From: Candidatus Omnitrophota bacterium
GTDB taxonomy: Bacteria > Omnitrophota > Gorgyraeia > Duberdicusellales > 4484-171
Reading direction: 5' to 3'
Assembly: GCA_041652815.1 (NCBI GenBank)
Contig: JBAZGN010000003.1
Coordinates: 129,530-193,529 of the forward strand
DNA length: 64,000 nt
This document shows positions 12,277-59,506 of this stretch, piece after piece. A program made the position numbers and the translations under genes. Under the pieces are notes generated by a model. It had not been told where the DNA came from, ran no database searches, and saw only the letters and a program-made list of their open reading frames with translations. Position 1 is the first letter of the stretch. Each line of letters starts with the position of its first letter.

Positions 12277-12310
12277 CTAAATACTACCTTCTTAGGTATT
12301 GCAAAAAACC

Positions 12311-15409: not shown

Positions 15410-15883
15410 CTTCCTATAATATATCTTATGTTAACTTTTATTATTGTCTAAAATCAGCTAATAGCTAATAGGGTCAATCATTTATTGAATTATTATAAAA
15501 AGCTGTGAATTCAAGGCGGGCTTCTTACCTCTATCTATATATTCTTACTTTATGTTTATTACCGTATTCTTCCAAGCCTATAAGAATCCTACCGGAAACT
15601 AGCCTTATAATACCCCTAAATCAGTCAAAATAGCCTCGATTTTAGCTTTAAAATACGGGATAGGGTTTGTCTATGGCGGGAAATAAAAAAGGCCGATAAG
15701 GGAGATTTTCCGATGCAACCCAGCTGCCGTAGCAGCTCCAACTGCCTAGCTTGCTTTGGTCTAAAGCAACGGCTTGTTGTACTACTTTAGGCCTGTGGCT
15801 TTGCGACCCCCGGCTTTCGCGACGGGGTTTACCCTTACCGGCAATTAATATATACAATATATTTTTATTATTTTCAAGTAGGC

Positions 15884-17867: not shown

Positions 17868-18233
17868 TTAAAAGATATTTGAAGGTTTCGATATCGAAGT
17901 AAGATAAGACATGAGGCAGCGACGGTCGGTTTCTTTTATTTCGCTAAAGTATATACCAAGACAGTATGATTGTTTACCATTGTCCTGCACGTGTTCGCTT
18001 CGAACGACTACACCCTTACAGTTTATTTTTTTTACGTTTTTATGGTTAGCCTTATTAAGCGGCACAAGCAAAACTATATCAAGTTTAGTCATCGGCGCAA
18101 TAGCTTTGTTTACCGCACAATACGCACCGCTACCACTTATATTTTTGGTTTCTGTAACCAGATCACAGTCAGCTGCACAAAGCTTTAAGGCAAGATTACC
18201 TTCGATGCGGGGATAACTTCTTTTTTCGCTCAT
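17868..18233 (-). CDS. PilZ-domain protein
   Basis: Motif RSYPRIEGNLALKL...KNISGSGAY is the PilZ RxxxR...DxSxxG signature. Confidence 0.6.
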   Translation of the reverse strand: MSEKRSYPRIEGNLALKLCAADCDLVTETKNISGSGAYCAVNKAIAPMTKLDIVLLVPLNKANHKNVKKINCKGVVVRSEHVQDNGKQSYCLGIYFSEIKETDRRCLMSYLTSISKPSNIF

Positions 18234-18414: not shown

Positions 18415-18732
18415 TTACTCTATTATTGAATTAAGATAATTTTTACTCTCTTCAGCTATCTCTACAAATTCTAAACCCGCGGAATACCTCTCAGAAGCCC
18501 TTTCTTTATTGCACCAAACAACTTTTGCTTTCATGCCTAAAACCTTATTTATAAGATTAATATTTAACTTAAGGCAATTATTTTTGGGTAAAAATTCGTC
18601 GCTAAGTATGCGCACCCCGCCTACGCTTAGGTCTTTGCTAACCGTATAAAAATACTCCTTCCCGGGAAGAATATTACATTCTATCGGAAAAGAAATAGGG
18701 CTGCGTGAATTTTTTCTCTTTTCGTCGATCAT
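18415..18732 (-). CDS. PilZ-domain protein
   Basis: Motif RKNSRSPISFPIEC...KDLSVGGV is a PilZ signature. Confidence 0.6.
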   Translation of the reverse strand: MIDEKRKNSRSPISFPIECNILPGKEYFYTVSKDLSVGGVRILSDEFLPKNNCLKLNINLINKVLGMKAKVVWCNKERASERYSAGLEFVEIAEESKNYLNSIIE

Positions 18733-24451: not shown

Positions 24452-24462
24452 AATCTCATTTA

Positions 24463-24534
24463 TCCCGTTAGAAAATATCCTGCGTGAGCCCCATTAGAAA
24501 CAAATCTCTAAATGGAGTAAGTTTTCTAACGGGA
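24463..24534. repeat. TCCCGTTAGAAAA/TTTTCTAACGGGA inverted-repeat element with nested hairpin
   Basis: 13-bp terminal inverted repeats flank 46 bp. Same terminal motif as the elements at 13033 and 21273. Confidence 0.6.
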
Positions 24535-24535
24535 T

Positions 24536-31700: not shown

Positions 31701-31727
31701 GTCAACCTCCTTCAAACGCTAATTTAC

Positions 31728-31875
31728 GCCAATCAAACGCCAATGGCCGCGAATAATTTTACTCGCATTTATCCAAAACCGAATAAAAATTCCGGTTCTT
31801 AGATTGTTTCCCATTCGCGTAAATTCGCGTTTATACCCAAAACATTATCAAGGTATAAATTCGCGAATATTCGCG
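31728..31875. promoter_or_regulatory. Operator-like array of 10-bp-phased heptamers: CGCCAAT/CGCGAAT x3 (31728-31754), ATTCGCG x2 (31813-31829), ATTCGCG x2 including the 14-bp palindrome CGCGAATATTCGCG (31859-31875)
   Basis: Exact 10-bp spacing within each cluster. A near-identical architecture occurs at 46700-46812. Confidence 0.55.
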
Positions 31876-31878
31876 TTG

Positions 31879-32796: not shown

Positions 32797-34145
32797 TCTT
32801 CCTCCTTACCTATGAATTTCTGCAGAAAGCCGGTATTATATTTTCCCCTTTGAAAATCAGGATCGGTTATTACTTCTTTACAAAATCCGGTTGTTGTCTT
32901 AATCGGCTCGATAAGAAACTCATCTAAAACCCTTTCCATTTTTTTCAATGCTTCCTGCCGGGTTTGCCCTTTTGTTATTGCCTTCGCTATCAAGGAATCA
33001 TAATACTGCGGTATTTTATAGCCGCTGTAGATATGCGTGTCTATTCTCACATCTTTTCCTCCCGGAATATAACAAAAATTTATGGTGCCGGGGCAAGGCA
33101 TAAAACCGTTCTCCGGGTCTTCTGCGTTAATGCGGCATTCAATAGCTGCACCCTTCATATGTATTTCATCTTGTTTTATGTTAAGCTTTTGTCCGGCTGC
33201 AATTGCAATTTGCAGTTTAACAAGGTCTATGCCGGTAATTTCTTCGGTTATTGGATGCTCAACCTGTATTCTTGTATTCATCTCCATGAAATAAAAATGG
33301 CCTTTTTCATCGAGAAGAAACTCTACAGTTCCCACACTCCTGTAATTCATAAGCTTAATGCCTTTTATACACATTTCACCAAGTTTCCGTCTCAAGCGCT
33401 GGTCTACTACAGGAGATGGGGTTTCTTCTATGATTTTTTGATGCCGGCGCTGAATGCTGCAATCCCTTTCCCCGAGATATATCGCATTACTAAAATTATC
33501 AGCGGCAATCTGTACTTCTATATGACGGGGATTTTCGATAAATTTTTCCATGTATATTTCGGAATCACCAAAAGCAGCCTTTGCTTCTGACTGGGCAGTT
33601 AAAAGTGCTCCAACCAGCCGGACATCACTGTGGCATACCCGCATACCTTTTCCTCCACCGCCGGCTTTTGCTTTAAGAATAACCGGATAGCCCATTTTTT
33701 TAGCAGTAGCAAGCGCATCGTCTTTTGTCTTTAGGGCGCCTTTACTTCCCGGTATGAGCGGCAGGTTTGCTTTATGCATAGTTTCCTTGGCCCTTAGCTT
33801 ATCACCCATAAGCCTTATATTCTCAGCAGAAGGGCCGATGAATTTTATGCCGCACGATTCGCATACCTCTGCGAAGTAAGGATTTTCCGCTAAAAAACCA
33901 TAACCCGGATGTATGGCATCACTATCGGTTATTTCTGCGGCACTGATTATGCTTGAAATGTTAAGGTAGCTTTCTGAGGAAGCTGCTTTGCCTATACAAA
34001 TTGCCTCATCGGCAAATTCCAAATGCAGGGAATTTTTGTCTGCCTCTGAATAAACCGCAACAGTCTTAATGCCCATCTCTCGGCAGGCCCTCATCACTCT
34101 TATTGCGATTTCCCCTCTATTGGCAATTAAAATTTTGGAAAACAT
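32793..34145 (-). CDS. accC: Acetyl-CoA carboxylase biotin carboxylase subunit
   Basis: ATP-grasp biotin carboxylase motifs throughout (MFSKILIANRGEIAIRV...). Confidence 0.92.
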   Translation of the reverse strand: MFSKILIANRGEIAIRVMRACREMGIKTVAVYSEADKNSLHLEFADEAICIGKAASSESYLNISSIISAAEITDSDAIHPGYGFLAENPYFAEVCESCGIKFIGPSAENIRLMGDKLRAKETMHKANLPLIPGSKGALKTKDDALATAKKMGYPVILKAKAGGGGKGMRVCHSDVRLVGALLTAQSEAKAAFGDSEIYMEKFIENPRHIEVQIAADNFSNAIYLGERDCSIQRRHQKIIEETPSPVVDQRLRRKLGEMCIKGIKLMNYRSVGTVEFLLDEKGHFYFMEMNTRIQVEHPITEEITGIDLVKLQIAIAAGQKLNIKQDEIHMKGAAIECRINAEDPENGFMPCPGTINFCYIPGGKDVRIDTHIYSGYKIPQYYDSLIAKAITKGQTRQEALKKMERVLDEFLIEPIKTTTGFCKEVITDPDFQRGKYNTGFLQKFIGKEEE

Positions 34146-34245
34146 TGAACCTCACTTCGTTCGGTTAGAGTACAGAAACCAGTAACCAGAAACTAGAACA
34201 GGAAAACATCTGGTTTCTGTGCTTTGGTTTCTGGTTTCAAATATA
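34146..34245 (-). repeat. Repeated leader element: twin CAGAAACCAG inverted repeats plus conserved box TCTAACCGAACGAAGTGAGGT abutting the accC start
   Basis: Same element family as 50070-50169 (rpsM leader). The SD-proximal box also occurs at 57053-57080 (rplX leader). Confidence 0.6.
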
Positions 34246-34246
34246 A

Positions 34247-34666
34247 TCATGCCGGCTCCAATACAAATAATGTTTGGCCGAATTCTACAGGTTGGCCGTT
34301 CTCAACTAAAACTTCAGTAACCTTTCCGCCTATCTCTGCTTTTATCTCATTCATAAGCTTCATTGCTTCTATAATACACACTACATCTCCCGATTTTATT
34401 ACATCGCCTATTTCAACGTAAGGCTTGGCCCCCGGAGACGGCGCGCGGTAGAAGGTACCAACCATTGGAGACTTTATTTCGATTGATCCTTCTCTTTTGG
34501 CGGGTTTTTCTTCTTTAACCGGTTGAGCTGCATGAGAAACAATAACCGGCTGGTTTTCCGAAAACTTTTTAAGCCTTATCTTCTTGCCTTCTTCTTCAAT
34601 CTCAAGCTCACACAGGCTGTTCTCATTCATAAAATTAATAAATTCTTTTAATTTTTCAAATTCCAT
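34247..34666 (-). CDS. accB: Acetyl-CoA carboxylase biotin carboxyl carrier protein
   Basis: Biotinyl-lysine motif EAMKLMNEI. Confidence 0.9.
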
Positions 34667-40339: not shown

Positions 40340-40344
40340 AGCTC

Positions 40345-40465
40345 GTATCGTTAAACGTCAACCGTTAATCGTCCTTTCTGCATATTCTTGACGCAACCGA
40401 TTTACGATAAACGTAACGAGCTGCGCAACCGTTTACCGTATGACGAAATAGCAAGTGCATATACC
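40345..40465. repeat. About 120-bp palindromic intergenic element rich in GCAACCG/CGGTTGC words (copy 1; copy 2 at 49165-49287)
   Basis: cggttgcacagctcgt pairs with acgagctgcgcaaccg. Shares ttcgtct(a/g)tcg(t/g)ttgc and acgag(c/t)tgcg(c/t)aaccg...ccgtttaac with the second copy. Confidence 0.55.
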
Positions 40466-40481
40466 TCTTGTTGATAATAAT

Positions 40482-44109: not shown

Positions 44110-45363
44110 CTATTTCTTAATATATTTCCTCGGGTCGGTAATTTCACCGCAAAGAGCGCTTGCTGCAACTGTTGCCGGAGAAGCAAGATAGATGAAACTA
44201 TTCGGATTACCCATCCTGCCCTTAAAATTCCTATTCGCGCTGGAAAGCACAATCTCCCCGTCCGCCGGCACTCCCTGGTGCGTTCCCACACAAGGCCCGC
44301 AGCCTGCCGGAAGCACAATTGCTCCAGACTCAAGAAATGTCTTAATATAACCTTTCCGCAAAGCTTCAAGGAATATTTTTGCGGAGGCAGGAGCAACTAA
44401 AAATTTTATTCCTTTACTTACTTTCTTTCCCTTTACTATTTTAGCTGCTATTTCTAAATCCTCAAGCCTTCCATTAGTACAAGTACCTAAATAGGCCTGG
44501 TGAATTTTTAACCCTTCCACCTCTTCTATACTTGCGCCATTATCTACGGTATGCGGTTTGGCCACATAAGGGGAAAATTTTGAGACATCAAACTCCAAAA
44601 CCTTTTCGTATTTACAATCACGATCAGAATAAACCGGTTTATGCTTCTTAACGCCTATTGAAGAAAGATAATCTAAGGCTTTTTTATCAGCAACCAAAAG
44701 CCCGCATTTTGCGCCGAATTCTATAGTCATATTGGTTATGGTAAAACGGCCATCCATTGAAAGCTTATCAATTACTTCCCCGGAGAATTCAACGGATTTA
44801 TAGGTTGCACCGTTTGCGGTTAACTTATGAATTATATGAAGGATTATGTCTTTGCTAAACACACCCTTTGGTATTTTCCCTTTGATAATAATTTTGTATG
44901 TAGAAGGAACTTTAAACCAGTTTTTCCCCGTAGCTAAAGTAATTGCCAGGTCGGTTGAGCCCACTCCGAAGGCTGCGGCAGAAAGCGCCCCAGCTGTAGA
45001 GGTATGCGAATCAGCGCCCAGTATAAGTGCACCAGGATAGGCAAAACCTTCCTCTATTATTAACTGATGCGATATTCCGCAGCCGACATCAAAAAACAGG
45101 TTTTTATTTAGCTTAGTAAACTCACGCATCCTGCTATGGACCTTAGAGACCCCCATGTTAGGAGAAGGAGCTGAATGATCGATAAACATTGCATATTTCT
45201 TTGGAGATTTTACGTTTCTAAACTGGCTCAAACCATCAAGCACAAGTGCGGAAGTTCCATCCTGCGAAAAACAAAAATCAACCGAACATATCCCCACTTC
45301 GCCGGCACGAAGTTTATTCTTAGAATGCGCCGATAATATTTTTTCTATGATAGTATGTCCCAT
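44110..45363 (-). CDS. 3-isopropylmalate dehydratase / aconitase-family large subunit (LeuC-like)
   Basis: Aconitase Fe-S ligand motifs in a 417-aa archaeal-type LeuC/homoaconitase-length protein. Confidence 0.75.
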   Translation of the reverse strand: MGHTIIEKILSAHSKNKLRAGEVGICSVDFCFSQDGTSALVLDGLSQFRNVKSPKKYAMFIDHSAPSPNMGVSKVHSRMREFTKLNKNLFFDVGCGISHQLIIEEGFAYPGALILGADSHTSTAGALSAAAFGVGSTDLAITLATGKNWFKVPSTYKIIIKGKIPKGVFSKDIILHIIHKLTANGATYKSVEFSGEVIDKLSMDGRFTITNMTIEFGAKCGLLVADKKALDYLSSIGVKKHKPVYSDRDCKYEKVLEFDVSKFSPYVAKPHTVDNGASIEEVEGLKIHQAYLGTCTNGRLEDLEIAAKIVKGKKVSKGIKFLVAPASAKIFLEALRKGYIKTFLESGAIVLPAGCGPCVGTHQGVPADGEIVLSSANRNFKGRMGNPNSFIYLASPATVAASALCGEITDPRKYIKK

Positions 45364-45364
45364 A

Positions 45365-45528
45365 AAGCATTAAACTCTAAACACTAAACTCGAAACTCTA
45401 AACAAATCTAAAACTCTAAATTCTAAATTTAAAACAAAATGTTTTAGGGTTGGAACATTGTGGTTTCGAATTTGTTTAGGGTCTAGGGTTTCGGATTTAG
45501 AATTTACCATATTATTTTAAAATATAAG
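45365..45528. repeat. Long imperfect palindrome built from CTAAAC-type repeats (left arm) and GTTTAG-type repeats (right arm)
   Basis: Left arm aaactctaaacactaaactcgaaactctaaacaaatctaaaactctaaattctaaat. Right arm is its imperfect reverse complement. Confidence 0.55.
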
Positions 45529-46683
45529 TTATAATTCTTCAGTGAACACTTTTATTCTGTCGATACCCTTTTCGATATCTTGAGCTGAAGTTGCAAAACT
45601 TAAACGTATATAGCCTTCCGCTCCAAAGGAATCTGCCGGTATAGTTGAAACAAGGTGCTTATCCAGAAGCTGCGATGAGAATTCCACGCTGCTTAAGCCG
45701 CTCTTTTTTATATCACAAAACATATAAAATGTTCCGCTTGGCTTAATCGGCTTAATTTTTTTCAAAGCTGACAATCCCGCAAAAAGCAGATTGCGCCTTT
45801 TTTCGAATTCTTCACGCATTGTTTGCGGCCATTTCTTATCCTGAATTGCCATAAGGCCTGCCGCCTGCGATATGGAAGATGCACAGCTTGTTGTATGGTC
45901 GATTACTTTTGAAATTGCTTCTATGAAATTGTTGGCTCCCTCAAGATAACCGAGGCGCCATCCTGTCATAGAAAAACTTTTTGAGAAACCATTGACCGTA
46001 ACTGTAAACTTATGAGCATCACCGATAGAAGCAAAACTTATATGTTTCGCTCCATCGTAAGTAAGTATTTCATATATTTCATCGCTTAAAACTATTATAT
46101 TTTTGTCTTTTACGGCCTCGTAAATTGCCTTCAATTCATTTTCATTATAAGTTACGCCTGTGGGATTACTTGGGTAGTTTAAAACAAGTAGTTTGGTTTT
46201 CTTCGATATGGCGCGGCTTAATCCATCTATGCTTAATTTAAAATTATCTTTTGCTTTAGTTTTTATAATTTTGACTTTCGCGCCGCACAACTTAACCATT
46301 TCAGGATAACTCACCCAGAAAGGTGCAGGAATCAAAGCTTCTTCGTTTCTATCAAGAAGGGCAGTCATCGCCGCAAAAAGCGCATATTTAGCTCCAGCTG
46401 TAACTATGATATTTGAGCTTTCGCAGGGAATGTGATTTTCTTCTTTTAGTTTGCGGCAAATCGCTTCGCGGATTTCGCTGGTGCCTACGGAAGGAGTATA
46501 TTTTGTAAGGCCTTGGTCTATGGCTAGCTTTGCTTTTTCCTTAATAAATGAAGGGGTATCAAAATCAGGCTCTCCAGCTGCAAAATTAACAACGTCTTTG
46601 CCTTCCTTCTTAAGTTTTTTGGTTAAAGCAGTTATCTTTAGAGTGGAAGATGAGCTCAAAGCCGAAACGCGCGAACTAATCAT
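45529..46683 (-). CDS. PLP-dependent aminotransferase class I/II (aspartate aminotransferase-like)
   Basis: Fold-type I pattern with the PLP lysine in SFSKSFSMTGWRLGY. Confidence 0.8.
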   Translation of the reverse strand: MISSRVSALSSSSTLKITALTKKLKKEGKDVVNFAAGEPDFDTPSFIKEKAKLAIDQGLTKYTPSVGTSEIREAICRKLKEENHIPCESSNIIVTAGAKYALFAAMTALLDRNEEALIPAPFWVSYPEMVKLCGAKVKIIKTKAKDNFKLSIDGLSRAISKKTKLLVLNYPSNPTGVTYNENELKAIYEAVKDKNIIVLSDEIYEILTYDGAKHISFASIGDAHKFTVTVNGFSKSFSMTGWRLGYLEGANNFIEAISKVIDHTTSCASSISQAAGLMAIQDKKWPQTMREEFEKRRNLLFAGLSALKKIKPIKPSGTFYMFCDIKKSGLSSVEFSSQLLDKHLVSTIPADSFGAEGYIRLSFATSAQDIEKGIDRIKVFTEEL

Positions 46684-46699
46684 TTTATATGCTAATTTA

Positions 46700-46812
46700 C
46701 GCGAATCTAACGCGAATTATCGCGAATAATAAAAATAATACACCCAACTAACGTAAATTTATAGAAAATATTTCATTCGCGAACATTCGCGTGCAATTAG
46801 CGAATATTCGCG
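46700..46812. promoter_or_regulatory. Operator-like array: CGCGAAT x3 (46700-46727), ATTCGCG x2 (46775-46791), palindrome GCGAATATTCGC (46800-46811)
   Basis: Same heptamer, spacing and order as at 31728-31875, upstream of the aminotransferase start. Confidence 0.55.
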
Positions 46813-46815
46813 TTA

Positions 46816-47331
46816 TCAAAGAGAGTCTCTCTCTTTTTTAAAAATTCCCTTAACCCCGTCGATTATAGTTTTTTTAGGCTTCTCTTTAAGCGGTGCGTGT
46901 CTTTCTTCTTTTCTTTCTATTTCTACGTGCTTTTGTTCTTTTTCCTTTTTATGTATTACTTTCTTTTCCTTTTTCTCTACTCTCGTAAGCTCTATAAGCG
47001 AAATCTTGGAAGCATCTCCCTTACGATAGCCTAAACCGAAAATCCGGCTATATCCGCCGTTTATGTCTTTAAAGCGCGGCGCAATATTATCAAATAATTT
47101 CTTAACCAGCATATGGTCGCAAAGCACTTTGTAAGCAAGCCGCCTGTTTGCTAACGTTGACTCTTTCGCCAAAGATATAAGCCTGTCTATCCAACTGCTT
47201 AATTCTTTCGCTTTTGCTTCACTTGTCTTAATGCGCTCGTAAATTATCAGCGAACGCAGCAACGATTTTTTAAGTGCTTTTCTCTGCGCTCTTGAACGGG
47301 AAAATTTTTGGCTTTTTTTTCTGTGCCTCAT
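46816..47331 (-). CDS. rplQ: 50S ribosomal protein L17 with a charged C-terminal extension
   Basis: L17 core (MRHRKKSQKFSRSRAQRKAL...) plus a Lys/Glu-rich tail. Confidence 0.9.
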   Translation of the reverse strand: MRHRKKSQKFSRSRAQRKALKKSLLRSLIIYERIKTSEAKAKELSSWIDRLISLAKESTLANRRLAYKVLCDHMLVKKLFDNIAPRFKDINGGYSRIFGLGYRKGDASKISLIELTRVEKKEKKVIHKKEKEQKHVEIERKEERHAPLKEKPKKTIIDGVKGIFKKERDSL

Positions 47332-48350
47332 ACTAATTCCAATTTCTTTCTATCTATTTTTACCCCAAGATTAAGCCCCATGGTTTTAAGAAGATTAACT
47401 ACTTCAGTGAGCGATTTCTTACCGAAATTCCGGTAGGATAATATCTCAGTCTCGGTTTTCTCAACCAAGTCAGCTAAAGATTTTATATTCGCCTCCCGAA
47501 GACAGTTTGCGCTACGCACCGAAAGCTCCAATTCTGTTATAGGAATTTTTAATTTCTCATAGAGCGAAACTTCCTCTGGCGTAAGCTCTTCTGTCTCTTC
47601 TTCGGGAATTTCGCCAAGAGTAAAGAAAAGCTCTAAATGCTTGCTTAAAACCTTGGCAGCATAAATTAGAGCTTCTTTTGGCTCTATACTTGCGTTTGTA
47701 AAAATTTCTATAATAAGTTTATCGTAATCCGTTCTTTTTCCAACCCTAGTATTTTCTACTTTAAAAGTGACTCTTTTAACAGGAGTAAAAATCGAATCTA
47801 TCGGAATAACTCCAATAGGCATGTCTTCTCTTTTATTATTCTCTGCAAGAACAAATCCTCTGCCGCGGCCTACTTCCATCTCTATATCAATTTTAGCCTT
47901 CTTTGAAGTAAGCGTTGCGATATGCTGGTCGGGATTTATAACTTCAATACTCTCGTCAGTTGTAATATCCGAAGCTTTTACTTGCTTTTCCCCTTCTACT
48001 TTCAGGGTTATTTTCTTGGGAGATTTGGAATATGACCTTAGAACAACGTTCTTGATATTTAAAATTATTTCCGGAACATCTTCCAGGACCCCTTCAATTG
48101 TAGAAAATTCATGGGAGCACCCTTCTATTTTAACAGAAGTGATAGCTGCACCCTCAATAGAAGAAATAAGCACACGCCTAAGGGCGTTACCCAGAGTAAC
48201 TCCATAACCTCTTTCCAGGGGTTCAGCGACGAATTTGCCATAATTAGGGCAATAGGTTTCTTGCTCAACTGTTATTCTTTTGGGAAATTGGAAATCTCGC
48301 CAGGTTATTCCCATTGTTTTACCTCCTTCAATGAGATAGCATTTTTTCAA
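47328..48350 (-). CDS. rpoA: DNA-directed RNA polymerase alpha subunit
   Basis: NTD and CTD motifs (LGNALRRVLISS...). Confidence 0.92.
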   Translation of the reverse strand: MKKCYLIEGGKTMGITWRDFQFPKRITVEQETYCPNYGKFVAEPLERGYGVTLGNALRRVLISSIEGAAITSVKIEGCSHEFSTIEGVLEDVPEIILNIKNVVLRSYSKSPKKITLKVEGEKQVKASDITTDESIEVINPDQHIATLTSKKAKIDIEMEVGRGRGFVLAENNKREDMPIGVIPIDSIFTPVKRVTFKVENTRVGKRTDYDKLIIEIFTNASIEPKEALIYAAKVLSKHLELFFTLGEIPEEETEELTPEEVSLYEKLKIPITELELSVRSANCLREANIKSLADLVEKTETEILSYRNFGKKSLTEVVNLLKTMGLNLGVKIDRKKLELV

Positions 48351-48354
48351 ATGG

Positions 48355-48510
48355 TAGTGCAGAAAAAATGCGTAATCGAATTGAACCCCGCCCTTTTGGC
48401 GAAGTCATAATTATTTTATTTACCCCACCAAAAGGGCGGGGTAAATTCGGCCTAACATTTTTCCTTCGGACGCCTGCCTTACGGCAGTCAGCCTTGAAAA
48501 AATGTTGGCC
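48355..48510. other. Structured spacer between rpsD and rpoA: two hairpins with 14-bp stems
   Basis: ccccgcccttttgg...ccaaaagggcgggg and ggcctaacattttt...aaaaaatgttggcc. Confidence 0.5.
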
Positions 48511-49140
48511 TCATTTAGAATAAAGTTCCACTATCAACTGTTCATTGACAGGTAATATAATATCTTCTTTTTCGGGAAGACGTATAATTTTTGCGCTGAA
48601 TGTATCTTTATCTATTTCTAGCCAACCTGCTATGCTGCGCTCTTTAGCATTTGCATCGTATGTTTCTTTAAGCGCTTTCTTAGTATTATCCTTTGCTTTT
48701 ATTTCTATAGTCGAGCCTGCGCTTACAAGATAAGAAGGGATATTTACTCTTTTACCGTTAACAAAAACAAACCCGTGCAAAACCATCTGCCGGGCCGCTT
48801 CCCGCGATGTAGTGAATAACATTCTAAAAATAACGTTATCAAGCCTTCGCTCAAGAAGCTGTAACAGCGCTCTTCCGGTTGCTCCTTTAGTCTTTGTCGC
48901 AATCTGGAAAAACCTTTTAAACTGTTTTTCCAACATTCCATACATCCATTTTACCCTCTGTTTTTCCCTTAACTGCAATGCGTAATAAGAAGGCTTGGAA
49001 GATATCCTTGTATGCATGCCTGGAGGTGTTGGCCTTTTTGAAAAGGCACATTTTTCCATCGAACAACGTGTACCTTTCAGAAAAAGTTTCATTCCTTCCC
49101 GTCTGCACAATTTACATTTTGACCCTAAATTTCTGCCCAT
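48511..49140 (-). CDS. rpsD: 30S ribosomal protein S4
   Basis: S4 signature including an N-terminal Zn-ribbon-like CKLCRREG. Confidence 0.92.
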   Translation of the reverse strand: MGRNLGSKCKLCRREGMKLFLKGTRCSMEKCAFSKRPTPPGMHTRISSKPSYYALQLREKQRVKWMYGMLEKQFKRFFQIATKTKGATGRALLQLLERRLDNVIFRMLFTTSREAARQMVLHGFVFVNGKRVNIPSYLVSAGSTIEIKAKDNTKKALKETYDANAKERSIAGWLEIDKDTFSAKIIRLPEKEDIILPVNEQLIVELYSK

Positions 49141-49164
49141 TTTAACCTCGCTATTTTGTAATAA

Positions 49165-49287
49165 CCTTTAGGTTGCGTTTTTCGTCTATCGTTTGCCTGC
49201 CCGCCTTCGGCGGGCGAGCTCGTTTCGTCTTACGCATAACGCAACCGTGACGAGTTGCGTAACCGCAACCGTTTAACATAGCTTTAA
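49165..49287. repeat. GCAACCG-rich palindromic element, copy 2 (see 40345-40465)
   Basis: Contains ggttgcgtttttcgtctatcgtttgcc, hairpin gcccgccttcggcgggc, and acgagttgcgtaaccgcaaccgtttaac. Confidence 0.5.
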
Positions 49288-49677
49288 TTACACTCTACGC
49301 TTCTTCCTCGGCCTGCAACCATTATGCGGAGAAGGTGTCACATCTTTTACTTTTTTTACATTCAAACCTGCTGCTTGTATGGAACGTATTGCCGCCTCTC
49401 TCCCGGGTCCAGGGCCTTTAACTAAAACCTCAACATCAGTTAAACCAAAGTCTTTTGCTTTTTTTGCAGCGTCGAAAGAAGCTATCTGCGCGGCATAGGG
49501 GGTTGATTTTTTCGTTCCTTTAAAACCAACTGTGCCGGCTGATGCCCACGCTAAAGTATTACCCGAAAAATCAGTGATTGTCACTATAGTGTTATTGAAT
49601 GTTGACTTCACATGGACAACACCCAGAGTTGAAGTCAGATGAACCTTTTTTCTTTTTTCTCTTTTTTGTTTCGCCAT
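49288..49677 (-). CDS. rpsK: 30S ribosomal protein S11
   Basis: S11 signature. Confidence 0.92.
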
Positions 49678-49691
49678 AATGCTCCTACTTT

Positions 49692-50069
49692 TTATTCGCC
49701 TTTTCTTTTAACTCCGCCGACTCTTGGCCTAGGGCCTTTACGGGTCCTCGCATTACACTTTGTGCGCTGGCCTCTTACCGGAAGGCCTTTTTTGTGGCGA
49801 GAGCCGCGGTAGCAGCCTATATCAACCAGCCTTCTTATATTTTGCGTTATCTCTCTTCGTAATTCACCTTCTATTTTATAATTAGCCTGGATATAAGAAA
49901 CTATCTTTGACATTTCTTCATCGGTTAAGGTTCCTGCCTCTTTTTCAGGGTCTATGCCTGTAGCAGAAAGTATACGAAAGCAATTGGTAGGCCCTACACC
50001 ATTAAGATACTGAAGAGCAATTTTTATTTTCTTTTCTTTTGGAATATCGACACCGAGAATTCTTGGCAT
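49692..50069 (-). CDS. rpsM: 30S ribosomal protein S13
   Basis: S13 signature [10 protein letters not shown]. Confidence 0.92.
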
Positions 50070-50169
50070 ATTTACCTCACTTTGTTCGGTTAGAAACCAG
50101 AAACCTGATTACAGAGTACAGAATGATTGCTTAATCTGGTTTCTGTTCTCTGGTTTCTGTAATCTCTTA
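50070..50169 (-). repeat. Leader element, copy 2: twin CAGAAACCAG inverted repeats plus box TCTAACCGAACAAAGTGAGGT abutting the rpsM start
   Basis: Alignable to the accC leader at 34146-34245. Confidence 0.6.
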
Positions 50170-50283
50170 TCATCCTTGTCTTTGCTTGTGCTTCTGGTTC
50201 TTGCAAATAACCCGCACAACGCCTTTTCGTCTTACAATCTTACACCTTTCGCAAATTCTTTTTACTGAACTTCTTACTTTCAT
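50170..50283 (-). CDS. rpmJ: 50S ribosomal protein L36
   Basis: 37 aa, [37 protein letters not shown]. Below the ORF-track length cut-off. Confidence 0.88.
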
Positions 50284-50290
50284 TTTTATT

Positions 50291-50405
50291 CCTGTTTTGC
50301 ACAGATTAGCACAGATTACAAAGCAAATGATCGCAGATAGAATCATCTGTGATCATCTGTGTCTGCCGTTTGTGATTATCTGTGTTTTTCATTTATATCT
50401 GTACG
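50291..50405. repeat. CACAGAT/ATCTGTG heptamer-repeat element, copy A
   Basis: Contains cacagattagcacagatt...gatgatcgcagat...atctgtgatcatctgtg...tatctgtg. Copy B at 55757-55882. Confidence 0.6.
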
Positions 50406-50604
50406 TAATCCTTCCCCTTGTCAAATCATAAGGAGAAAGCTCAACCTTTACTTTATCTCCCGGAAGAATCCTTATAAAATGCATCCGCATTTTTCCTGAA
50501 ACATGAGTAAGAACAATATGGCCATTCTCAAGCTTTACCCGAAACATTGCATTAGGAAGCGCCTCTACGATTTCTCCTTCAACTTCTATTAGTTCTTCTT
50601 TCAT
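50389..50604 (-). CDS. infA: Translation initiation factor IF-1
   Basis: S1-like OB fold ([20 protein letters not shown]). Confidence 0.92.
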
Positions 50605-51353
50605 ATCCGAGTTAAAATCACAGGGCCTTTTTTTGTTATAGCTACAGTATGCTCAAAATGAGCAGAAAGTGAACCATCTCTTGTTTTCGCAGTCCAGCCG
50701 TCTTTGGCTACTTCAACATCGTAATTCCCGGCTGTAACCATCGGCTCAATCGCAATGGCCATGCCATCGGAAAGCTCATCCCCTTTGCCAGGCGTGCCGA
50801 AATTAGGCACTTCCGGATGCTGATGCAAGGCCCTTCCTATGCCGTGGCCCACAAACTTTCTGACAACCGCAAACCCCTGTTTTTCAATAAAACTTTGCAC
50901 GGCGCTTCCGACATCCCCTGTGGTTGCTTGCGGCTTTGCCTTCTTTATGCCCTCGTAAAGCGCTTTAAGAGACGCTTTTAAAAGTTTTTTTGCCGGCGGT
51001 TGCGCTCTGCCCGCGATATAAGTATATGCTGTATCTACAAAGAGCCCTTTATACTTTATCCCCAAGTCTATACTGACCAAGTCCCCTTCTTTGATCGTCC
51101 TTTCCTCTGAAGGGATACCGTGTATAACCTCATCATTTATGGACACGCACAAAGATGCGGGATAGCCCATAAACCCCTTAAACGCTGATTCCATTTCAGG
51201 GTATTCTTTAAGATAATTGTCAAAGCTTTCTTCGATATATTTTGTTGTGACACCCGGCCTGACACACTTCTTAAGCTTCTTTAAGATAAGAGCTGCTACG
51301 CGGCCAGCGGCCCGCATACAGGCGATTTCTTCGTTAGAAAGCCCTTCGGTCAT
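50601..51353 (-). CDS. map: Methionine aminopeptidase type I
   Basis: M24A metal ligands. Confidence 0.9.
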
Positions 51354-51976
51354 ATCAACTTTTTTATGCGCACTAAAACAATATCCTTATTGCCTCGTGC
51401 ATCTATGGCAATAAGTTTATTTTTCTTCTTGTAATAATCCAACAGGCTCTTATTTTCGTTAAGAAAAACTTCCCAACGTTTCTTGATAACTTCAGGGGTA
51501 TCGTCTTTTCTCTGAATCAACTCTGAGCCGCAGCTGTCGCATATGCCTGTTTTTTTAGGAGGCATATTTACCATATGATAGTTCGCCCCGCATTGCTTAC
51601 ATACAAGTCTTTTGGTGAGCCTCTCTAAAATTGTCGGCTCATCAACTTCAAGATAAATAAAAGCATCAATACTCGCGCCTTTTTTTACCAAAATCTTATC
51701 CAGGGTTTTTGCCTGGTTAAGGTTACGCGGGTAGCCGTCGAGTATAAAATTTTCTTCGTTAAGGTTTTCTTCTATTACCTTTGAAACCAAAATATCCGGA
51801 ACCAGCAGCCCTTTTTCCATGTAGCTTTTCACTTCTTTTCCAAGCGGGCTGTCTTTTTTTACTTCTTCCCGAAAAATATCACCCAAGGATATACGTTTTA
51901 ATTTATAATGCTCGCTAAGAGCTATTGCCTGGGTACCTTTGCCTGAACCGGGTGCTCCAAAAAGAATTATCTTCAT
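51350..51976 (-). CDS. adk: Adenylate kinase (with Zn-binding lid CxxC...CxxC)
   Basis: P-loop GAPGSGKGTQ. Lid motif CKQCGANYH...CDSCGSEL. Confidence 0.92.
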   Translation of the reverse strand: MKIILFGAPGSGKGTQAIALSEHYKLKRISLGDIFREEVKKDSPLGKEVKSYMEKGLLVPDILVSKVIEENLNEENFILDGYPRNLNQAKTLDKILVKKGASIDAFIYLEVDEPTILERLTKRLVCKQCGANYHMVNMPPKKTGICDSCGSELIQRKDDTPEVIKKRWEVFLNENKSLLDYYKKKNKLIAIDARGNKDIVLVRIKKLI

Positions 51977-51990
51977 TGCATCCTTTTATG

Positions 51991-52081
51991 ATAGAAGCGG
52001 ATTGCCGCGGATATTTACGCGGATTTCCGCACGCAAGTCGCTGGCGTTTATCCGCGTTTAAATCCGCGGATATCCGCTTCT
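51991..52081. repeat. About 90-bp palindromic GCGGAT-rich element, copy 1 (between secY and adk)
   Basis: tagaagcggattgccgcggatatttacgcggat...atccgcgtttaaatccgcggatatccgcttcta. Second copy at 56097-56183. Confidence 0.7.
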
Positions 52082-52084
52082 ATA

Positions 52085-53440
52085 TTAACGCCTTGCTTTT
52101 AAAGAACCGCCCTTAATAAAACCTTCGTAATGGCGGACCATGAGTTGGCCTTCTATTTGTTTCATCGTATCTAAAACGACACCAATCATAATCAAAAGCG
52201 TTGTGCCGCCAAAAAACGATGCCAGCGCATAGCTAGGCACATTAAATATTTTCATAATGAAATTAGGGAAAACTGCAACCAGAGATACGTATAAAGCTCC
52301 GACAAAAACAATTCTGGTTGCGACAAAATCAAGATATTCTCCGGTTGTTCTGCCCGGCCTTATTCCGGGAATAAAACCACCGTATTTTTTTAGATTGTTT
52401 GATATTTCCTGAGGATTAAAAACTATGGCTGTGTAAAAATACATAAAGAAAAATATAAGTAAAACGTAAATTAGGTTATACCAAAGACCACGTTCCTGGA
52501 GAAGCATCTGCAAGAAACTTACTATTTTAAGTTTTTTCGGCATAAATGTTGCAAGTGTTGCCGGAAAAAGAATAACGCTTTGCGCGAAAATTATCGCGAT
52601 AACTCCGGACATATCAACTCTTACGGGTAAATACGTGCTTTGTCCGCCATAGACGCGCCTTCCAACCACGCGTTTTCCATATTGAACGGGGATTCTTCTT
52701 TGTGCCTGAGTAAAAAGTATAACCGCCATAACCACTAGAACCCATAAAACAAGCAAGGCAATAAGTGTAGTTACAGGGATTTGCCTCTTCGAAGCATCAA
52801 AAGGCGAATACAAAAGATATAACTGATAGAGAGAAGCGGGTATCCTTGAAATAATACTTGTCATAATGATAAGTGATATACCGTTGCCTATGCCTCTTTC
52901 CTGGATTTGCTCTCCAAGCCACATAATAAAAACCGTTCCGCAGGTAAGCGTGAGCACTGTAATGAATTTGAAAACAATTCCCGGATCATGGACCATGCTG
53001 ATACCCTGAAAATTATTCGGGTTTTCAAGCCACATCGCCAGAAACAGTCCCTGGACTACACAGAGGAAAAAAGTTAAATATCTTGTGTATTGGTTTATTT
53101 TTTCGTAGCCGGCTTTACCTTCTTTTGCAAGCCTTTCAAGTGCAGGAATTACTGCAGTTAAAAGCTGCATAATAATTGAGCTTGAGATATACGGCATAAC
53201 ACCCAAAGCGAATATACTTAAACGGTCTAAAGCGCCACCTGTAAAAATACCAAGTATACCGAGAAGAGTTTGCCCTTGAGTTTTAGCGAGATTCTCGAAA
53301 AATCTATTAAGCGCAAAAGTATCTATGCCAGGGGTTGGGATATAGCAGCCTACCCTGTATACTATAAGCAGAGAAAGAGTTATAAGGACCTTTCTCTTTA
53401 GCTCCTCTATCTTAAAGATATTTTTTACCGCTTCAAACAT
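52085..53440 (-). CDS. secY: Preprotein translocase subunit SecY
   Basis: 10-TM SecY pattern. Confidence 0.92.
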   Translation of the reverse strand: MFEAVKNIFKIEELKRKVLITLSLLIVYRVGCYIPTPGIDTFALNRFFENLAKTQGQTLLGILGIFTGGALDRLSIFALGVMPYISSSIIMQLLTAVIPALERLAKEGKAGYEKINQYTRYLTFFLCVVQGLFLAMWLENPNNFQGISMVHDPGIVFKFITVLTLTCGTVFIMWLGEQIQERGIGNGISLIIMTSIISRIPASLYQLYLLYSPFDASKRQIPVTTLIALLVLWVLVVMAVILFTQAQRRIPVQYGKRVVGRRVYGGQSTYLPVRVDMSGVIAIIFAQSVILFPATLATFMPKKLKIVSFLQMLLQERGLWYNLIYVLLIFFFMYFYTAIVFNPQEISNNLKKYGGFIPGIRPGRTTGEYLDFVATRIVFVGALYVSLVAVFPNFIMKIFNVPSYALASFFGGTTLLIMIGVVLDTMKQIEGQLMVRHYEGFIKGGSLKARR

Positions 53441-53880
53441 TGAGCCTCTCCTCCGGCACTTTCTATAATTTTTCTAGCTTTATCGGAAAACTTATCTGCC
53501 TTAAAAGTAGCTTTAATTGCAAACTTTTCTTTTATGCTGGCAAGTATTTTTATCGGCATATCCGCGTCTTTTATGAGTTTTGCGGCCTTGAGAGCTTCCG
53601 GGCCTATTTCTTTGGTATTTTTTATCTTTTCCTGTATGTCACGAAGATTGACTACCTGAAAATATTCTTTTGCGTAAATATTAAAACCTCTTTTGGGCAT
53701 CTTACGCGCGTAGGGAATATTACCGCCGTTAAAACCTATATATGGCCAAACATTGCCGCTTCTTGAACCTGCGCCTTTATTCCCGCGGCCTGCAGTCTTT
53801 CCCCATCCACTGCCTGTTCCTCTACCCAGGCGCTTGCCGGTTTTATTCTTTGTTTTTATGCTTATTTTGGATAAATCCAT
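53425..53880 (-). CDS. rplO: 50S ribosomal protein L15
   Basis: Gly-rich KRLGRGTGSGWGKTAGRG. Confidence 0.9.
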   Translation of the reverse strand: MDLSKISIKTKNKTGKRLGRGTGSGWGKTAGRGNKGAGSRSGNVWPYIGFNGGNIPYARKMPKRGFNIYAKEYFQVVNLRDIQEKIKNTKEIGPEALKAAKLIKDADMPIKILASIKEKFAIKATFKADKFSDKARKIIESAGGEAQCLKR

Positions 53881-53882
53881 AG

Positions 53883-54368
53883 CTATGCCTTCTTTAACTG
53901 GTTTAATCCCATAAATGTAGCCTTAACCACGTTTATCGGATTTGTGGATTTTTTTAAAATCTTAGTCAATATATCCTTGATGCCTGAACAGTCACATATG
54001 GCACGTATTGTCGATGAGGCTATAACGCCCGTTCCTTTTGATGCCGGCTTAAGAAGTATCCGGACAGCCCCGAATTCACCATAAACCTCATGAGGTATTG
54101 TTGTATCCTTTTTATTTATGACTACCAAACTTTTCTTGGCTTTTTTAATTCCTTTCTTTATGGCTTCGGCTACCTCGTTTGCTTTGCCTAGAGCAAAGCC
54201 TACTGAGCCGTCTGTATCTCCTACTACAACCAACGCTGAAAAGCCTAAATTTTTTCCGCCCTTAGTTACTTTAGTTACCCTATTTATAAAAATAACTTTT
54301 TCAACAAAAACTTTTTCCCTGGGTTCGGTTTGGACTTCTGTTTGTTTTGTGAAATTTGTGCCGCTCAA
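53883..54368 (-). CDS. rpsE: 30S ribosomal protein S5
   Basis: S5 signature. Confidence 0.9.
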
Positions 54369-54718
54369 AATTTCAACCCTCCTTCTCTTGCTCCGTCCGA
54401 TAGAGCCTGCACTCTTCCGTGATACTTGTATCCTGCCCTATCAAAACAAACCTCTTTTATGCCAAGCGATGTGGCTTTGGCAGCTATAAGCTTACCTATT
54501 TCTTTGGCCGCTTCTTTATTTCCGCTTTTCATATTCTTAGCTTTGAATTCTTTGCTTAAAGTGGAACAACCGGCAATTACCGTACTGGCATCGTCTTTTA
54601 CCAGCTGCGCATAAATATGCTTCTTGCTGCGAAAAACAACCAGCCTGGGCTTAACAGCAGTTCCTTGTACTTTCCTGGTTACCCTTTCATGCCTTCTTTC
54701 TCTTTGCGGTAATTTCAT
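54365..54718 (-). CDS. rplR: 50S ribosomal protein L18
   Basis: L18 signature. Confidence 0.9.
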
Positions 54719-54802
54719 TTTACTTTCCTTTAAACCTTGATTGTGTTAATTAAGATCCTTCAGCCCTTCGGGCTTCAGGATAAGCAGCCTGTTCCCGGCT
54801 GC

Positions 54803-55342
54803 TTATTTAGCTAAAGCTTTTCCTAATTTTTTCTTTACTTCCTCGCCCACGTATCTGATACCTTTGCCTTTATAGGGCTCAGGCGGGTAAATTTTACGTA
54901 ACACTGCTGCGAATTGGCCTAGTTTTTGCCTATCCGCGCCTTCAACTATAACGCGGTTCGGGTTGGGAACGGTAACTTTCAAATCTTTCGAAACAGGTAT
55001 CTCAACCGGATGCGAAAACCCCATAACCAAAACTAAATTCGTTCCCTTAATCATAGCTTTATAACCTGTGCCGACTATATCAAGCTCTTTTTTGTAGCCA
55101 TCGACAACACCTTTTACCATATTATTAATTATGGCTCTTATCGTACCATGCGAACTTCGTATCTGTTTTTCCTCGCTTTCTCTTTTAACTATCACCTTAT
55201 CGCTAGAAAGCTCCAAAGTTACCCCCTTAGGAATATTCAAGCTTAATTTTCCTTTTACGCCTTCTATTAGCAAGCTGCCGCTAGCAAAACTTGCCTTAAC
55301 TCCTTTGGGCAACTGAACTGGTTGTTTTCCTATTCTTGACAT
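54803..55342 (-). CDS. rplF: 50S ribosomal protein L6
   Basis: L6 signature. Confidence 0.9.
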   Translation of the reverse strand: MSRIGKQPVQLPKGVKASFASGSLLIEGVKGKLSLNIPKGVTLELSSDKVIVKRESEEKQIRSSHGTIRAIINNMVKGVVDGYKKELDIVGTGYKAMIKGTNLVLVMGFSHPVEIPVSKDLKVTVPNPNRVIVEGADRQKLGQFAAVLRKIYPPEPYKGKGIRYVGEEVKKKLGKALAK

Positions 55343-55357
55343 ATTATTTATTGTTAT

Positions 55358-55753
55358 TTACCAAATCTTACCTATATATTCTCCACCGATACCCTTGGCC
55401 TTGGCTTCTTTGTCGGTAAGTATATTAGCGGATGTAGAGATAAGGGCAATACCGTAACCGCGTAAAACCGACGGAATTCTTTCTTTTTTGACATAAATCC
55501 TTCTTCCCGGCTTCGATATTTTTTTAATTTCGCTAAGCACGCTCTTTTTACCGTCATATTTTAAGTATACTTTTATATTTTTGAAATTCTCCAAGTCTAC
55601 TTCTTTAAAGTTTTCCACATAGCCTTCTCTTTTAAGAATTTCACAAATTTTTAAAAGCACTTTGGAGTAAGGTATCAAAGTGTCTTCCTTTTTTACCTTT
55701 ACGGCATTCCTGATAATCGTAAATGCATCCGCTATTAAATCTGTTCTACTCAT
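55358..55753 (-). CDS. rpsH: 30S ribosomal protein S8
   Basis: S8 signature. Confidence 0.9.
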   Translation of the reverse strand: MSRTDLIADAFTIIRNAVKVKKEDTLIPYSKVLLKICEILKREGYVENFKEVDLENFKNIKVYLKYDGKKSVLSEIKKISKPGRRIYVKKERIPSVLRGYGIALISTSANILTDKEAKAKGIGGEYIGKIW

Positions 55754-55756
55754 TAT

Positions 55757-55882
55757 GTCTCCTTATATACACAGATTAGCGTAGATTTTGAAACGGATGA
55801 TCGCAGATGATTTTTATCTGTGGTCATCTGTGACTTCTCATTTCTGGCTATCTGTAATTTTTTATCCGTGATCATCTGTGTA
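55757..55882. repeat. CACAGAT/ATCTGTG heptamer-repeat element, copy B (between rpsN and rpsH)
   Basis: Contains cacagattagcgtagatt...gatgatcgcagatga...atctgtggtcatctgtg...gtgatcatctgtg. Confidence 0.6.
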
Positions 55883-56077
55883 TTACCAACTCGCCTTTTT
55901 TAAACCGGGGATAACCCCCTGCCAGGCAAGTTGCCTGAAACAAATACGGCAAAGTTCAAAATCCCTTATGTAACCGCGAGGCCTGCCGCATAACCGGCAA
56001 CGGTTTCTGTAGCGGGTTGAAAACTTTGGTTTTATTTTTTCTTTTTTCCATTTTTCAATTTTTGCAGTTGTCGCCAT
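55883..56077 (-). CDS. rpsN: 30S ribosomal protein S14, type Z (zinc-binding)
   Basis: 61 aa with [23 protein letters not shown]. Confidence 0.9.
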
Positions 56078-56096
56078 TTTTAACTCCTATTCTATA

Positions 56097-56183: not shown

Positions 56184-56186
56184 CTT

Positions 56187-57948: not shown

Positions 57949-58041
57949 CCAGCCCTTCCTTGTAATTTTTTAACTATCTATTGTATTGATGCGTAAATAA
58001 TCCTTATTTGTGCCGCTTCCATTTCATTGGAAGGGCTGGAT

Positions 58042-58452: not shown

Positions 58453-58453
58453 A

Positions 58454-59503: not shown

Positions 59504-59506
59504 GTT

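Follow-up and report, generated by a model that had tools for sequence, protein, structure and literature searches.

Leaders of accC, rpsM and rplX in an Omnitrophota genome as candidate copies of an intercistronic cassette that would supply a ribosome-binding site

Introduction

Why should unrelated housekeeping genes of one bacterium carry the same sequence immediately before their start codons? The question is raised by the leaders of accC, rpsM and rplX in a 64,000-nucleotide (nt) stretch of a Candidatus Omnitrophota genome (assembly GCA_041652815.1, contig JBAZGN010000003.1, positions 129,530 to 193,529), here called the window. A first-pass annotation of the window had noticed that the accC and rpsM leaders can be aligned, that both have twin inverted repeats and end in a conserved box containing the Shine-Dalgarno (SD) sequence, and that rplX has part of the same element; it suggested either a common element of translational control or standby site, or a miniature inverted-repeat transposable element (MITE) that donates a ribosome-binding site (RBS). 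Small repeated inserts in bacterial operons are usually seen as junk or as transcription or stability signals. To our knowledge Omnitrophota have neither a genetic system nor a pure culture, and we approached the question by comparing sequences. On balance we favor the reading that the leaders are copies of an Omnitrophota-specific intercistronic cassette, which has been copied between junctions, replaces the short native junction and supplies the RBS of the downstream gene.

Results

Three leaders with one layout

The 21-nt box TCTAACCGARCRAAGYGAGGT stands at the accB/accC, rpmJ/rpsM and rplN/rplX junctions. A scan of the window with TCTAACCGARCGAAGYGAGGT, allowing up to three mismatches, returned exactly these three matches against 0.01 expected, and none of 100 shuffles gave three. 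The alignable leaders and the start-proximal box of the first-pass annotation are confirmed. All three boxes and their genes lie on the minus strand, a correction to that annotation, in the order efp-accB-accC and within the S10-spc-alpha ribosomal-protein cluster (Table 1). Gene identities at the three sites are supported by Pfam, those of efp-accB-accC through an identical locus (L001). The window has 39% G+C and also matches contig JALOCC010000008.1 of assembly GCA_023227945.1; the nearest AccC homologues all carry the label Candidatus Omnitrophota or Omnitrophica.

The intergenic regions with the box are 100 to 104 nt long, each beginning at the accB, rpmJ or rplN stop codon; for accC this gives 34146-34246 (101 nt) instead of the 34146-34245 first assigned. 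Read 5' to 3', the layout is a CAGNNNN heptamer array, which is optional, and a loop, followed by about four CTGNNNT heptamers whose register matches that of the box; the box itself, four further nucleotides and ATG complete it. The conserved core of ~56 nt comprises the ~4 CTGNNNT heptamers, the 21-nt box, the 4-nt A/T-rich spacer and ATG, the heptamers stopping ~24 nt before the ATG with the SD-containing box in between. All three leaders can be aligned end to end, with a 7-nt period of CAG in the 5' half and of CTG in the 3' half. The CAG and CTG heptamers of the rplX leader are in phase with those of accC and rpsM while their variable bases differ, and since the alignment covers the whole length, rplX is a complete member of the set and not the partial one it was first taken for. 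When CAGAAACCAG was searched with up to one mismatch, the window gave 14 matches against 2.7 expected; exact copies were confined to the accC and rpsM leaders.

Pairing between the boxes and the anti-SD sequence has a computed energy of -8.6 to -9.1 kcal/mol, approximately the top-quartile boundary of the genes in the window (25th percentile -8.6). Other genes of the window have ordinary AGGAGG-type SD sequences without the box.

A polymorphic insert at otherwise compact junctions

The same junctions in relatives are often compact. Where accB/accC measures 101 nt here, it measures 0 nt (TAA and then ATG) in a relative whose AccC is 96% identical, 9 nt in a second (97%) and 31 nt in a third (93%); a fourth (94%) has 74 nt, with one-polarity CAGATAG heptamers followed by a variant box, CTAACCGAGCGCAGAGAGGT-TTAA-ATG. 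The rplN/rplX junction, 104 nt here, is 10-13 nt in seven relatives, including the closest one (rplN 92% identical at the nucleotide level), and reads aaggaataaatt with an AAGGA SD of its own; no trace of this compact sequence and its native SD is left at the filled sites. In two other genomes rplN/rplX is 91-92 nt long, with ACAGTAA-type heptamers and the box. At rpmJ/rpsM the 100 nt of the window compare with 24 nt in the three closest relatives and 49 nt in another; in a further relative the junction is 124 nt long and contains an unrelated palindrome but not the box, and two have 72-99 nt with ACAGTAA heptamers and the box. Heptamer type tends to be common to the junctions of one genome and differs between genomes at the same junction. 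The box is missing from many close relatives, and at the filled sites it is the sole SD-like sequence before the start codon. Compact junctions at the same sites in close relatives indicate that the element is a gained, polymorphic insert that replaces the native RBS.

Among the suggestions of the first-pass annotation, a MITE that donates the RBS is the nearest to these comparisons, as an insert has been gained in place of the native junction and SD, and presence/absence polymorphism is seen at all three orthologous sites. As a MITE in the strict sense, however, the element falls short. Filled and empty accC, rplX and rpsM junctions show no flanking direct repeat of the kind left by target-site duplication, the native 10-24 nt having been replaced and not split. 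The inverted arrays that might act as terminal inverted repeats are significant in 7 of the 20 copies tested and weak or absent in about half, and the box lies outside them, on one side only. The window holds three copies in 64 kb, with diverged arms, species-representative genomes have one or two exact boxes each, and the open reading frames (ORFs) of the window scanned with Pfam include no transposase or RNA-binding candidate.

Box copies at start codons in other genomes

We then asked where else the box occurs. An exact search of one genome per prokaryotic species found seven loci in six metagenome-assembled genomes (MAGs) of Omnitrophota type, one of them labelled only "bacterium", and three Algoriphagus genomes in which the match lies away from start codons. 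Scanning metagenomes with the three variable box positions set to N added ~9 start-codon copies and ~8 matches without a start codon, a number of strays close to chance expectation, and further copies came from relatives reached through identical L36, S14 and AccC proteins. In all, ~22 distinct start-codon copies were collected from public genomes and metagenomes, confined to Omnitrophota MAGs or similar low-GC contigs; all sequences are MAGs or metagenome contigs, and the starts beyond the three window sites were taken from longest ORFs. A box limited to the three window sites and missing from the leaders of relatives would have counted against the first-pass annotation; what we find is a box at ~19 further Omnitrophota start codons, the orthologous rpsM and rplX leaders among them.

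The placement of these copies is strict. GAGGT is followed by a 4-nt spacer in ~18 of the 22 copies and a 3-nt spacer in two, and ~19 of 22 have an upstream ORF in the same direction whose end lies 37-152 nt ahead of the box. None of these copies is reversed or an orphan, and the 5' half of the box (CTAACCGARC) never occurs without the 3' half. The four heptamers next to the box have the consensus C-T-G-T-N-N-T, in register with the CTAACCG of the box, C-T-G being matched in 16-19 of 20 copies in unit -1 and in 12-17 of 20 in unit -4; autocorrelation peaks at lag 7 (0.47) and lag 14 (0.41) over a background of ~0.28. A covariance model built from the box and two heptamers of the 22 copies and run against 290 kb of Omnitrophota DNA scored the known copies at 36 bits or more and a diverged variant at a relative's accC at 26.7 bits, with everything else below 15 bits. 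The box occupies the same junction in very distant genomes, where protein identity is 58% for rpsM, 76% for hisF and 74% for a gene encoding an FmdB-type zinc-ribbon protein. Downstream genes comprise rpsH, rpsM, rplX, rpsD, hisF (twice), the FmdB-type gene (twice), coaE, guaB, ahcY (S-adenosylhomocysteinase), a HAD phosphatase, the beta subunit of a thiamine pyrophosphate (TPP)-dependent 2-oxoacid oxidoreductase and acrB, unrelated housekeeping genes with no common functional theme.

A neutral origin, in which the heptamer repeats grew by polymerase slippage and became palindromic by template switching while the box is simply the SD context preferred in this lineage, has some appeal for the arrays. 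Heptamer arrays of many unrelated units are common in Omnitrophota intergenic DNA, heptamers are reported to be the most abundant class of long simple-sequence repeat in many bacteria (cited in PMC4679880), two loci (L035, L053) have one-polarity arrays that lack a complement, and in another (L015) the SD-start region itself has become a 13-nt slippage ladder. It is nevertheless very improbable as a full account: repeated origin in place cannot account for an identical 21-nt box in different genomes and at junctions unrelated to each other, nearly all copies have close to four CTG units, in register, and neither the dependence of the 5' half of the box on the 3' half nor the ordinary box-free SDs of the other window genes would be expected. 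A neutral origin of the box is largely refuted.

Several matches outside this set deserve mention. In the L015 copy a 13-nt unit follows the box in tandem, forming a ladder of SD plus ATG-AAG-TGA mini-ORFs before the true TTG start of a 178-aa gene (possibly PilO-like). Partial boxes without heptamers are found in 21-31-nt junctions of three loci and may be deletion remnants of the cassette. We set aside two viral-contig matches, neither of them at a start codon. The exact 21-mers of Algoriphagus and of two other loci (L013, L020) were also kept apart, as they lie off start codons within arrays of other mini-hairpins whose GA-RCGAAGY-GA loop is constant and whose stems vary with compensation (ATC/GAT, GCC/GGC, GGGTCTAACC/GGTAGACCC). 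These arrays look like a separate hairpin-array family outside Omnitrophota, and Rfam has no match at them.

A covarying mini-hairpin predicted around the SD sequence

The minimum-energy fold predicted for the box is AACC-GA-RC-RAA-GY-GA-GGUU (-3 to -5.6 kcal/mol), a mini-hairpin with an AACC/GGUU stem, tandem G.A pairs, an R-Y pair and a C(RAA)G triloop, in which the SD GAGGU forms the 3' strand. In the predicted ensemble the SD GGU is paired with a probability of 0.9-1.0, apart from the first G of accC (0.39). Covariation supports this fold. The R-Y positions, which had been left free (N) in the metagenome scan, form AU in 11 copies, GC in 9 and GU in 2, with no mismatch among the 22; the covariation score was reached by none of 500 shuffles, and when the 3' partner was slid by one to three columns, pairing fell from 96% to 15-40%. 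Both states, A-U and G-C, are scattered over the heptamer subtypes and both loop variants (GAA, AAA), implying several independent switches. Two bases 3' of GAGGT, likewise free in the searches, lengthen the stem in most copies (17 of 20 and 19 of 22). G-U is present and A-C is absent, which fits pairing in the sense RNA, though the numbers are small. Common translational control or a standby site, the other suggestion of the first-pass annotation, may thus have a structural basis in this SD-containing hairpin, but the genes that follow it have no functional theme in common.

A hairpin that holds the SD could be a structural sensor, for example an RNA thermometer in which the weak mini-hairpin masks the SD until temperature or a ligand opens it. 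The predicted pairing of the SD GGU and the weak stem with its non-canonical G.A pairs would suit such a device. We regard it as extremely improbable, however, because the downstream genes are constitutive housekeeping genes, the AACC strand shows no likeness to the U-rich or UYGCU anti-SD sequences of ROSE or fourU elements, which precede heat-shock or virulence genes, Rfam gives no match, and the hairpin is probably too weak to stop a 30S subunit. Other identities were tried by inspection. A longer pairing of the box, with helix 45 or the 3' tail of 16S rRNA, considered without an Omnitrophota 16S sequence, was rejected as the complementary stretches are not colinear and one genome has both variants of the box. 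On sequence and architecture we also ruled out that the box or heptamers are a K-turn, an integron attC site, a LexA box or mini-ykkC.

The conserved box and phased heptamers might instead mark a regulon, the CUGNNNU heptamers and/or the GA-rich mini-hairpin being bound by an RNA-binding protein that co-regulates translation of the cassette genes. An S1- or Csp-type OB-fold protein would be a candidate, as would a ring oligomer in the manner of HutP or TRAP. That nearly all copies have ~4 CTG triplets at exact 7-nt spacing, and that the box is identical in very divergent genomes beyond what an SD needs, would both follow from such binding, and for the TAACTGA repeats of other bacteria, binding of S1, Csp or CsrA-like proteins has been suggested (PMC4679880). 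We still judge a regulon unlikely: its members would share no functional theme, presence and absence among close relatives at essential genes is hard to square with an indispensable regulon, the four variable heptamer bases differ among genomes, and Pfam analysis of the window ORFs yielded no candidate protein.

The long hairpin and the upstream stop codon

Folding the three leaders predicted hairpins in all of them, of -28.3 kcal/mol (z -2.7) for accC, -29.1 (z -3.9) for rpsM and -25.5 (z -1.9) for rplX. Across the 20 copies tested, a long hairpin of 20-30 bp, formed with the upstream CAG-type array, was significant (z <= -2.7) in 7 and marginal (z -1.9 to -2.3) in 4, and was weak or absent in the rest. 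The sense fold was stronger than the antisense fold in 12 of the 20, with 69 against 46 G.U pairs. As the long hairpin is weak in about half of the copies and has no sense-strand bias, a role for it at the RNA level is unproven.

The hairpin begins 2-13 nt past the upstream stop codon or includes it, so that a terminating ribosome would open the complementary array. This position lends weak support to retained translational coupling; it is also the automatic result of an element that fills the whole spacer. In four other loci (L018, L026, L009, L012) the upstream ORF stops 37-42 nt before the box, apparently reading through the 5' heptamer arm to or near the loop, and the insert there would extend the upstream protein by a few C-terminal codons.

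A different use of the hairpin would be in mRNA processing or stability: polycistronic transcripts would be divided there, by RNase III-type cleavage or by a barrier to decay, and the downstream cistron would keep a defined 5' leader with the box at its end. The intercistronic RNase III sites of phage T7 and the Correia elements of Neisseria act in this manner, and stems of 20-30 bp between cistrons of ribosomal-protein operons would fit this pattern. The three regions (34146-34246, 50070-50169 and 57053-57156) have no sigma-70 promoter or terminator consensus site, and the elements lack a terminator-like U-tract; many other palindrome families sit at similar junctions in this genome. Yet roughly half of the copies have no hairpin, or no significant one, and still keep the box and the 3' heptamers, the antisense fold is as good as the sense fold, and relatives do without the hairpin at the same junctions. 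Processing by RNase III would pertain only to hairpin-bearing copies, and as an account of the element we find it improbable.

Other inserts in the window and in related loci

The window contains at least five other intercistronic palindrome families, of ~85-180 nt, whose arms are tandem 7-11-nt sub-repeats of the types GCGGAT-, CACAGAT-, CGCGAAT- and ACGGTTGCG-, plus telomere-like TAAACTC/CCCTAAA. Several are missing at the same junctions in close relatives, one of which (L051) lacks 5 inserts in 21 kb. At the one junction compared directly, upstream of a PFK gene, the native SD is intact downstream of the insert. Among Omnitrophota spacer arrays, CTG/CAG is the only heptamer type linked to the box.

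A structured insert of 160-226 nt lies at rpsD/rpoA in the window (-77 kcal/mol) and at ribosomal-protein junctions that differ by genome in related loci. Its cores are GTGAAGCAG, CTGAACTTACCCC, GGGGTTAATTCG and CATTTTT...AAAAATG...CTCATTAA; it has no credible Rfam match, only a sub-threshold hit to mir-3119 (30 bits against a gathering score of 80), and it could be a new mobile structured RNA or MITE. A scan of the window at Rfam 15 gathering thresholds reported only two tRNAs and a c-di-GMP-I riboswitch, which has three PilZ-domain genes nearby, and E-value scans of 45300-62900 and six related loci gave no match at the elements.

Table 1. Coordinates of the box, leader parts and other features (window positions unless a locus is named)
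Feature	Coordinates	Strand	Details
accB/accC intergenic region	34146-34246	minus	101 nt
accC 5' arm GAAACCAGAAACCAAAGCACAGAAACCAG	34210-34238	minus	CAG-type heptamers; starts 8 nt past accB stop (34247-34249)
accC long-hairpin apical loop	34197-34209	minus	predicted fold
accC 3' arm	34170-34196	minus	CTAGTTT CTGGTTA CTGGTTT CTGTAC(T); register shared with box
accC box TCTAACCGAACGAAGTGAGGT	34149-34169	minus	0 mismatches; 3 nt before ATG (34145); SD GAGGT at 34149-34153; predicted mini-hairpin AACC..GGUU at 34148-34166
accC spacer and start	34143-34148	minus	TCA + ATG
rpmJ/rpsM intergenic region	50070-50169	minus	100 nt
rpsM 5' arm ACAGAAACCAGAGAACAGAAACCAG and flank TAAGAGATT	50136-50169	minus	predicted pairing from 2 nt past rpmJ stop (50170-50172)
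rpsM apical loop	50124-50135	minus	predicted fold
rpsM 3' arm	50095-50123	minus	TT CTGTACT CTGTAAT CAGGTTT CTGGTT(T)
rpsM box TCTAACCGAACAAAGTGAGGT	50074-50094	minus	1 mismatch; 4 nt before ATG (50069); spacer AAAT 50070-50073; ATG 50067-50069
rplN/rplX intergenic region	57053-57156	minus	104 nt
rplX 5' part	57112-57156	minus	AAA CAGATAG CAGATTG CAGATAG CAGTTAG GCAGATA ATTTCAT; abuts rplN stop (57157-57159)
rplX 3' arm	57078-57111	minus	CTGGCAT CTACAAC CTGATAA CTGCCAT ATGTTA(T)
rplX box TCTAACCGAGCGAAGCGAGGT	57057-57077	minus	0 mismatches; 4 nt before ATG (57052); G..C variant of covarying pair; spacer TTAA 57053-57056; ATG 57050-57052
Tandem 13-nt unit AAGTGAGGTTATG after box	L015 716-794	minus	
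Partial box ACTTAACGAAGCGAGGTTAGAAT	L034 3497-3519		no heptamers
Partial box ..TTAAGCGAGGTTAAA	L036 2100-2120		no heptamers
Partial box ..GCGCAAAGCGCAGAGAGGTCTGA	L055 1470-1500		no heptamers
Hairpin arrays	L007 5170-5450; L020 1-310; L013		L007, Algoriphagus limi; also L002, L008
Other palindromes	51977-52084 + 56078-56186		
Other palindromes	50284-50388 + 55754-55882		
Other palindromes	46684-46815 + 31716-31878		
Other palindromes	40340-40481 + 49141-49287		
Other palindrome	45364-45528		
Other palindrome	24452-24535		
Structured insert	48351-48510		rpsD/rpoA
Same structured insert elsewhere	L032 3065-3230; L036 1484-1709; L039 3617-3810; L044 3620-3835		
c-di-GMP-I riboswitch	15711-15843	minus	50.9 bits
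PilZ-domain genes	12299-13030; 17868-18233; 18415-18732		

Discussion

What, then, would the element do at these junctions? Under the reading we favor, that of a copied cassette with an RBS-providing core, a fixed orientation with a 4-nt spacing, disappearance of the native SD, very short or overlapping target junctions and a box that outlasts the hairpin are all expected. The box would be the working RBS. Where the long hairpin is present it would fold the insert away and be melted by ribosomes terminating on the upstream gene, which would keep downstream initiation coupled to upstream translation, while the single-stranded CUG heptamers may give the 30S subunit or protein S1 a place to land or stand by. 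The likeliest route of spread would be non-homologous copying between junctions followed by homologous exchange among relatives.

Several observations weigh against this proposal. Neither target-site duplication nor a conserved 5' end nor a transposase was seen, and the mechanism of copying is left unexplained. Copy number is low, with one to three exact boxes per genome sampled. The long hairpin reaches significance in only about half of the copies and shows no consistent sense-strand bias in G.U pairs or stability. Invariance at 18 of the 21 box positions was partly forced by the search patterns. The function of the cassette is proposed from its position alone, and 21 identical nucleotides in genomes whose S13 proteins are 58% identical exceed the obvious need of an SD and a weak hairpin, which hints at a further partner.

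One form that such a partner could take is a dedicated RNA-binding protein or specialized ribosome component that reads the phased CUG heptamers and the tandem-G.A SD hairpin as a phylum-specific translational address label. We consider this quite unlikely. If it were true, a post-transcriptional regulon would extend over housekeeping genes by means of a label that spreads its own copies to operon junctions with tight coupling. Such a mobile cis-regulatory module would be of a kind undescribed in bacteria and would possibly follow the same principle as the TAACTGA repeats discussed below.

The favored cassette has consequences of its own. An insert has entered junctions that once overlapped or measured 10-24 nt, including those of essential ribosomal-protein operons, and it appears to persist there by bringing its own RBS at a fixed 4-nt distance from the start. 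If this is correct, the element would be a portable ribosome-binding cassette of natural origin, akin to engineered RBS insulators, a concrete and testable RNA motif for translation initiation in Omnitrophota, and a second, better-defined case beside the unexplained start-codon heptamer repeats of Beggiatoaceae and cyanobacteria. For annotation, the comparison also counsels caution, as operon junctions are hypervariable in these MAGs.

How does the element compare with known systems? REPs are 20-40 nt long, have a GTAG or CGTC head, reach high copy number and are associated with RAYT transposases. Like REP and BIME sequences, which are extragenic palindromes often found between genes of one operon, the elements sit inside operons, but at 70-100 nt, with no GTAG or CGTC head and in low copy, they do not belong to that class. 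The Correia elements of Neisseria, enterobacterial ERIC/IRU and pneumococcal RUP/BOX are palindromic intergenic inserts of ~100 nt that are co-transcribed with their neighbors, present or absent among related strains, form hairpins in mRNA and can alter expression of flanking genes. Unlike these, the elements described here have arms of tandem heptamers and an asymmetric, strictly oriented box outside the inverted repeat that would give the RBS; the native junction is replaced and not merely interrupted, and no target-site duplication or cognate transposase was found.

In the MS2 coat-replicase and E. coli rpmI-rplT systems, translation is coupled through structures opened by the upstream ribosome. 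The hairpin here resembles them in beginning near the upstream stop, directly upstream of the next RBS, and differs in that their SD lies within the long-range structure, whereas here it lies in a separate, adjoining mini-hairpin. The STRR sequences of cyanobacteria are tandem 7-nt intergenic units that are not known to be tied to an SD box or start codons; one of their units, CAACAGT, resembles the ACAGTAA units of two of our loci (L021, L032).

The closest published analogue is the set of TAACTGA heptamer direct repeats that precede start codons in marine Beggiatoaceae, in Bacteroidetes and in some cyanobacteria (MacGregor 2015, PMC4679880). These arrays have two to six forward units just before start codons, inside ribosomal-protein operons, with no functional pattern in the downstream genes and a patchy phylogeny, and a role in translation has been proposed; ~90% of the sites have no SD, and one inverted repeat was reported (PMC4679880). 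The elements share with them the 7-nt unit, the forward orientation and the operon-internal, start-proximal position. They differ in that the heptamers are followed by a conserved SD-containing 21-nt box, an inverted array is often present and copy number is low; the units are CTGNNNT or CAGNNNN, and no TAACTGA doublet (TAACTGATAACTG) occurs in the window or any locus examined. Our literature search found no published description of the box sequence and, apart from the TAACTGA paper, nothing relevant on Omnitrophota repeats or on MITEs with an SD sequence. The element thus joins start-codon-proximal heptamer repeats with co-transcribed palindromic inserts, and what is new is the conserved, structured box that would donate the RBS.

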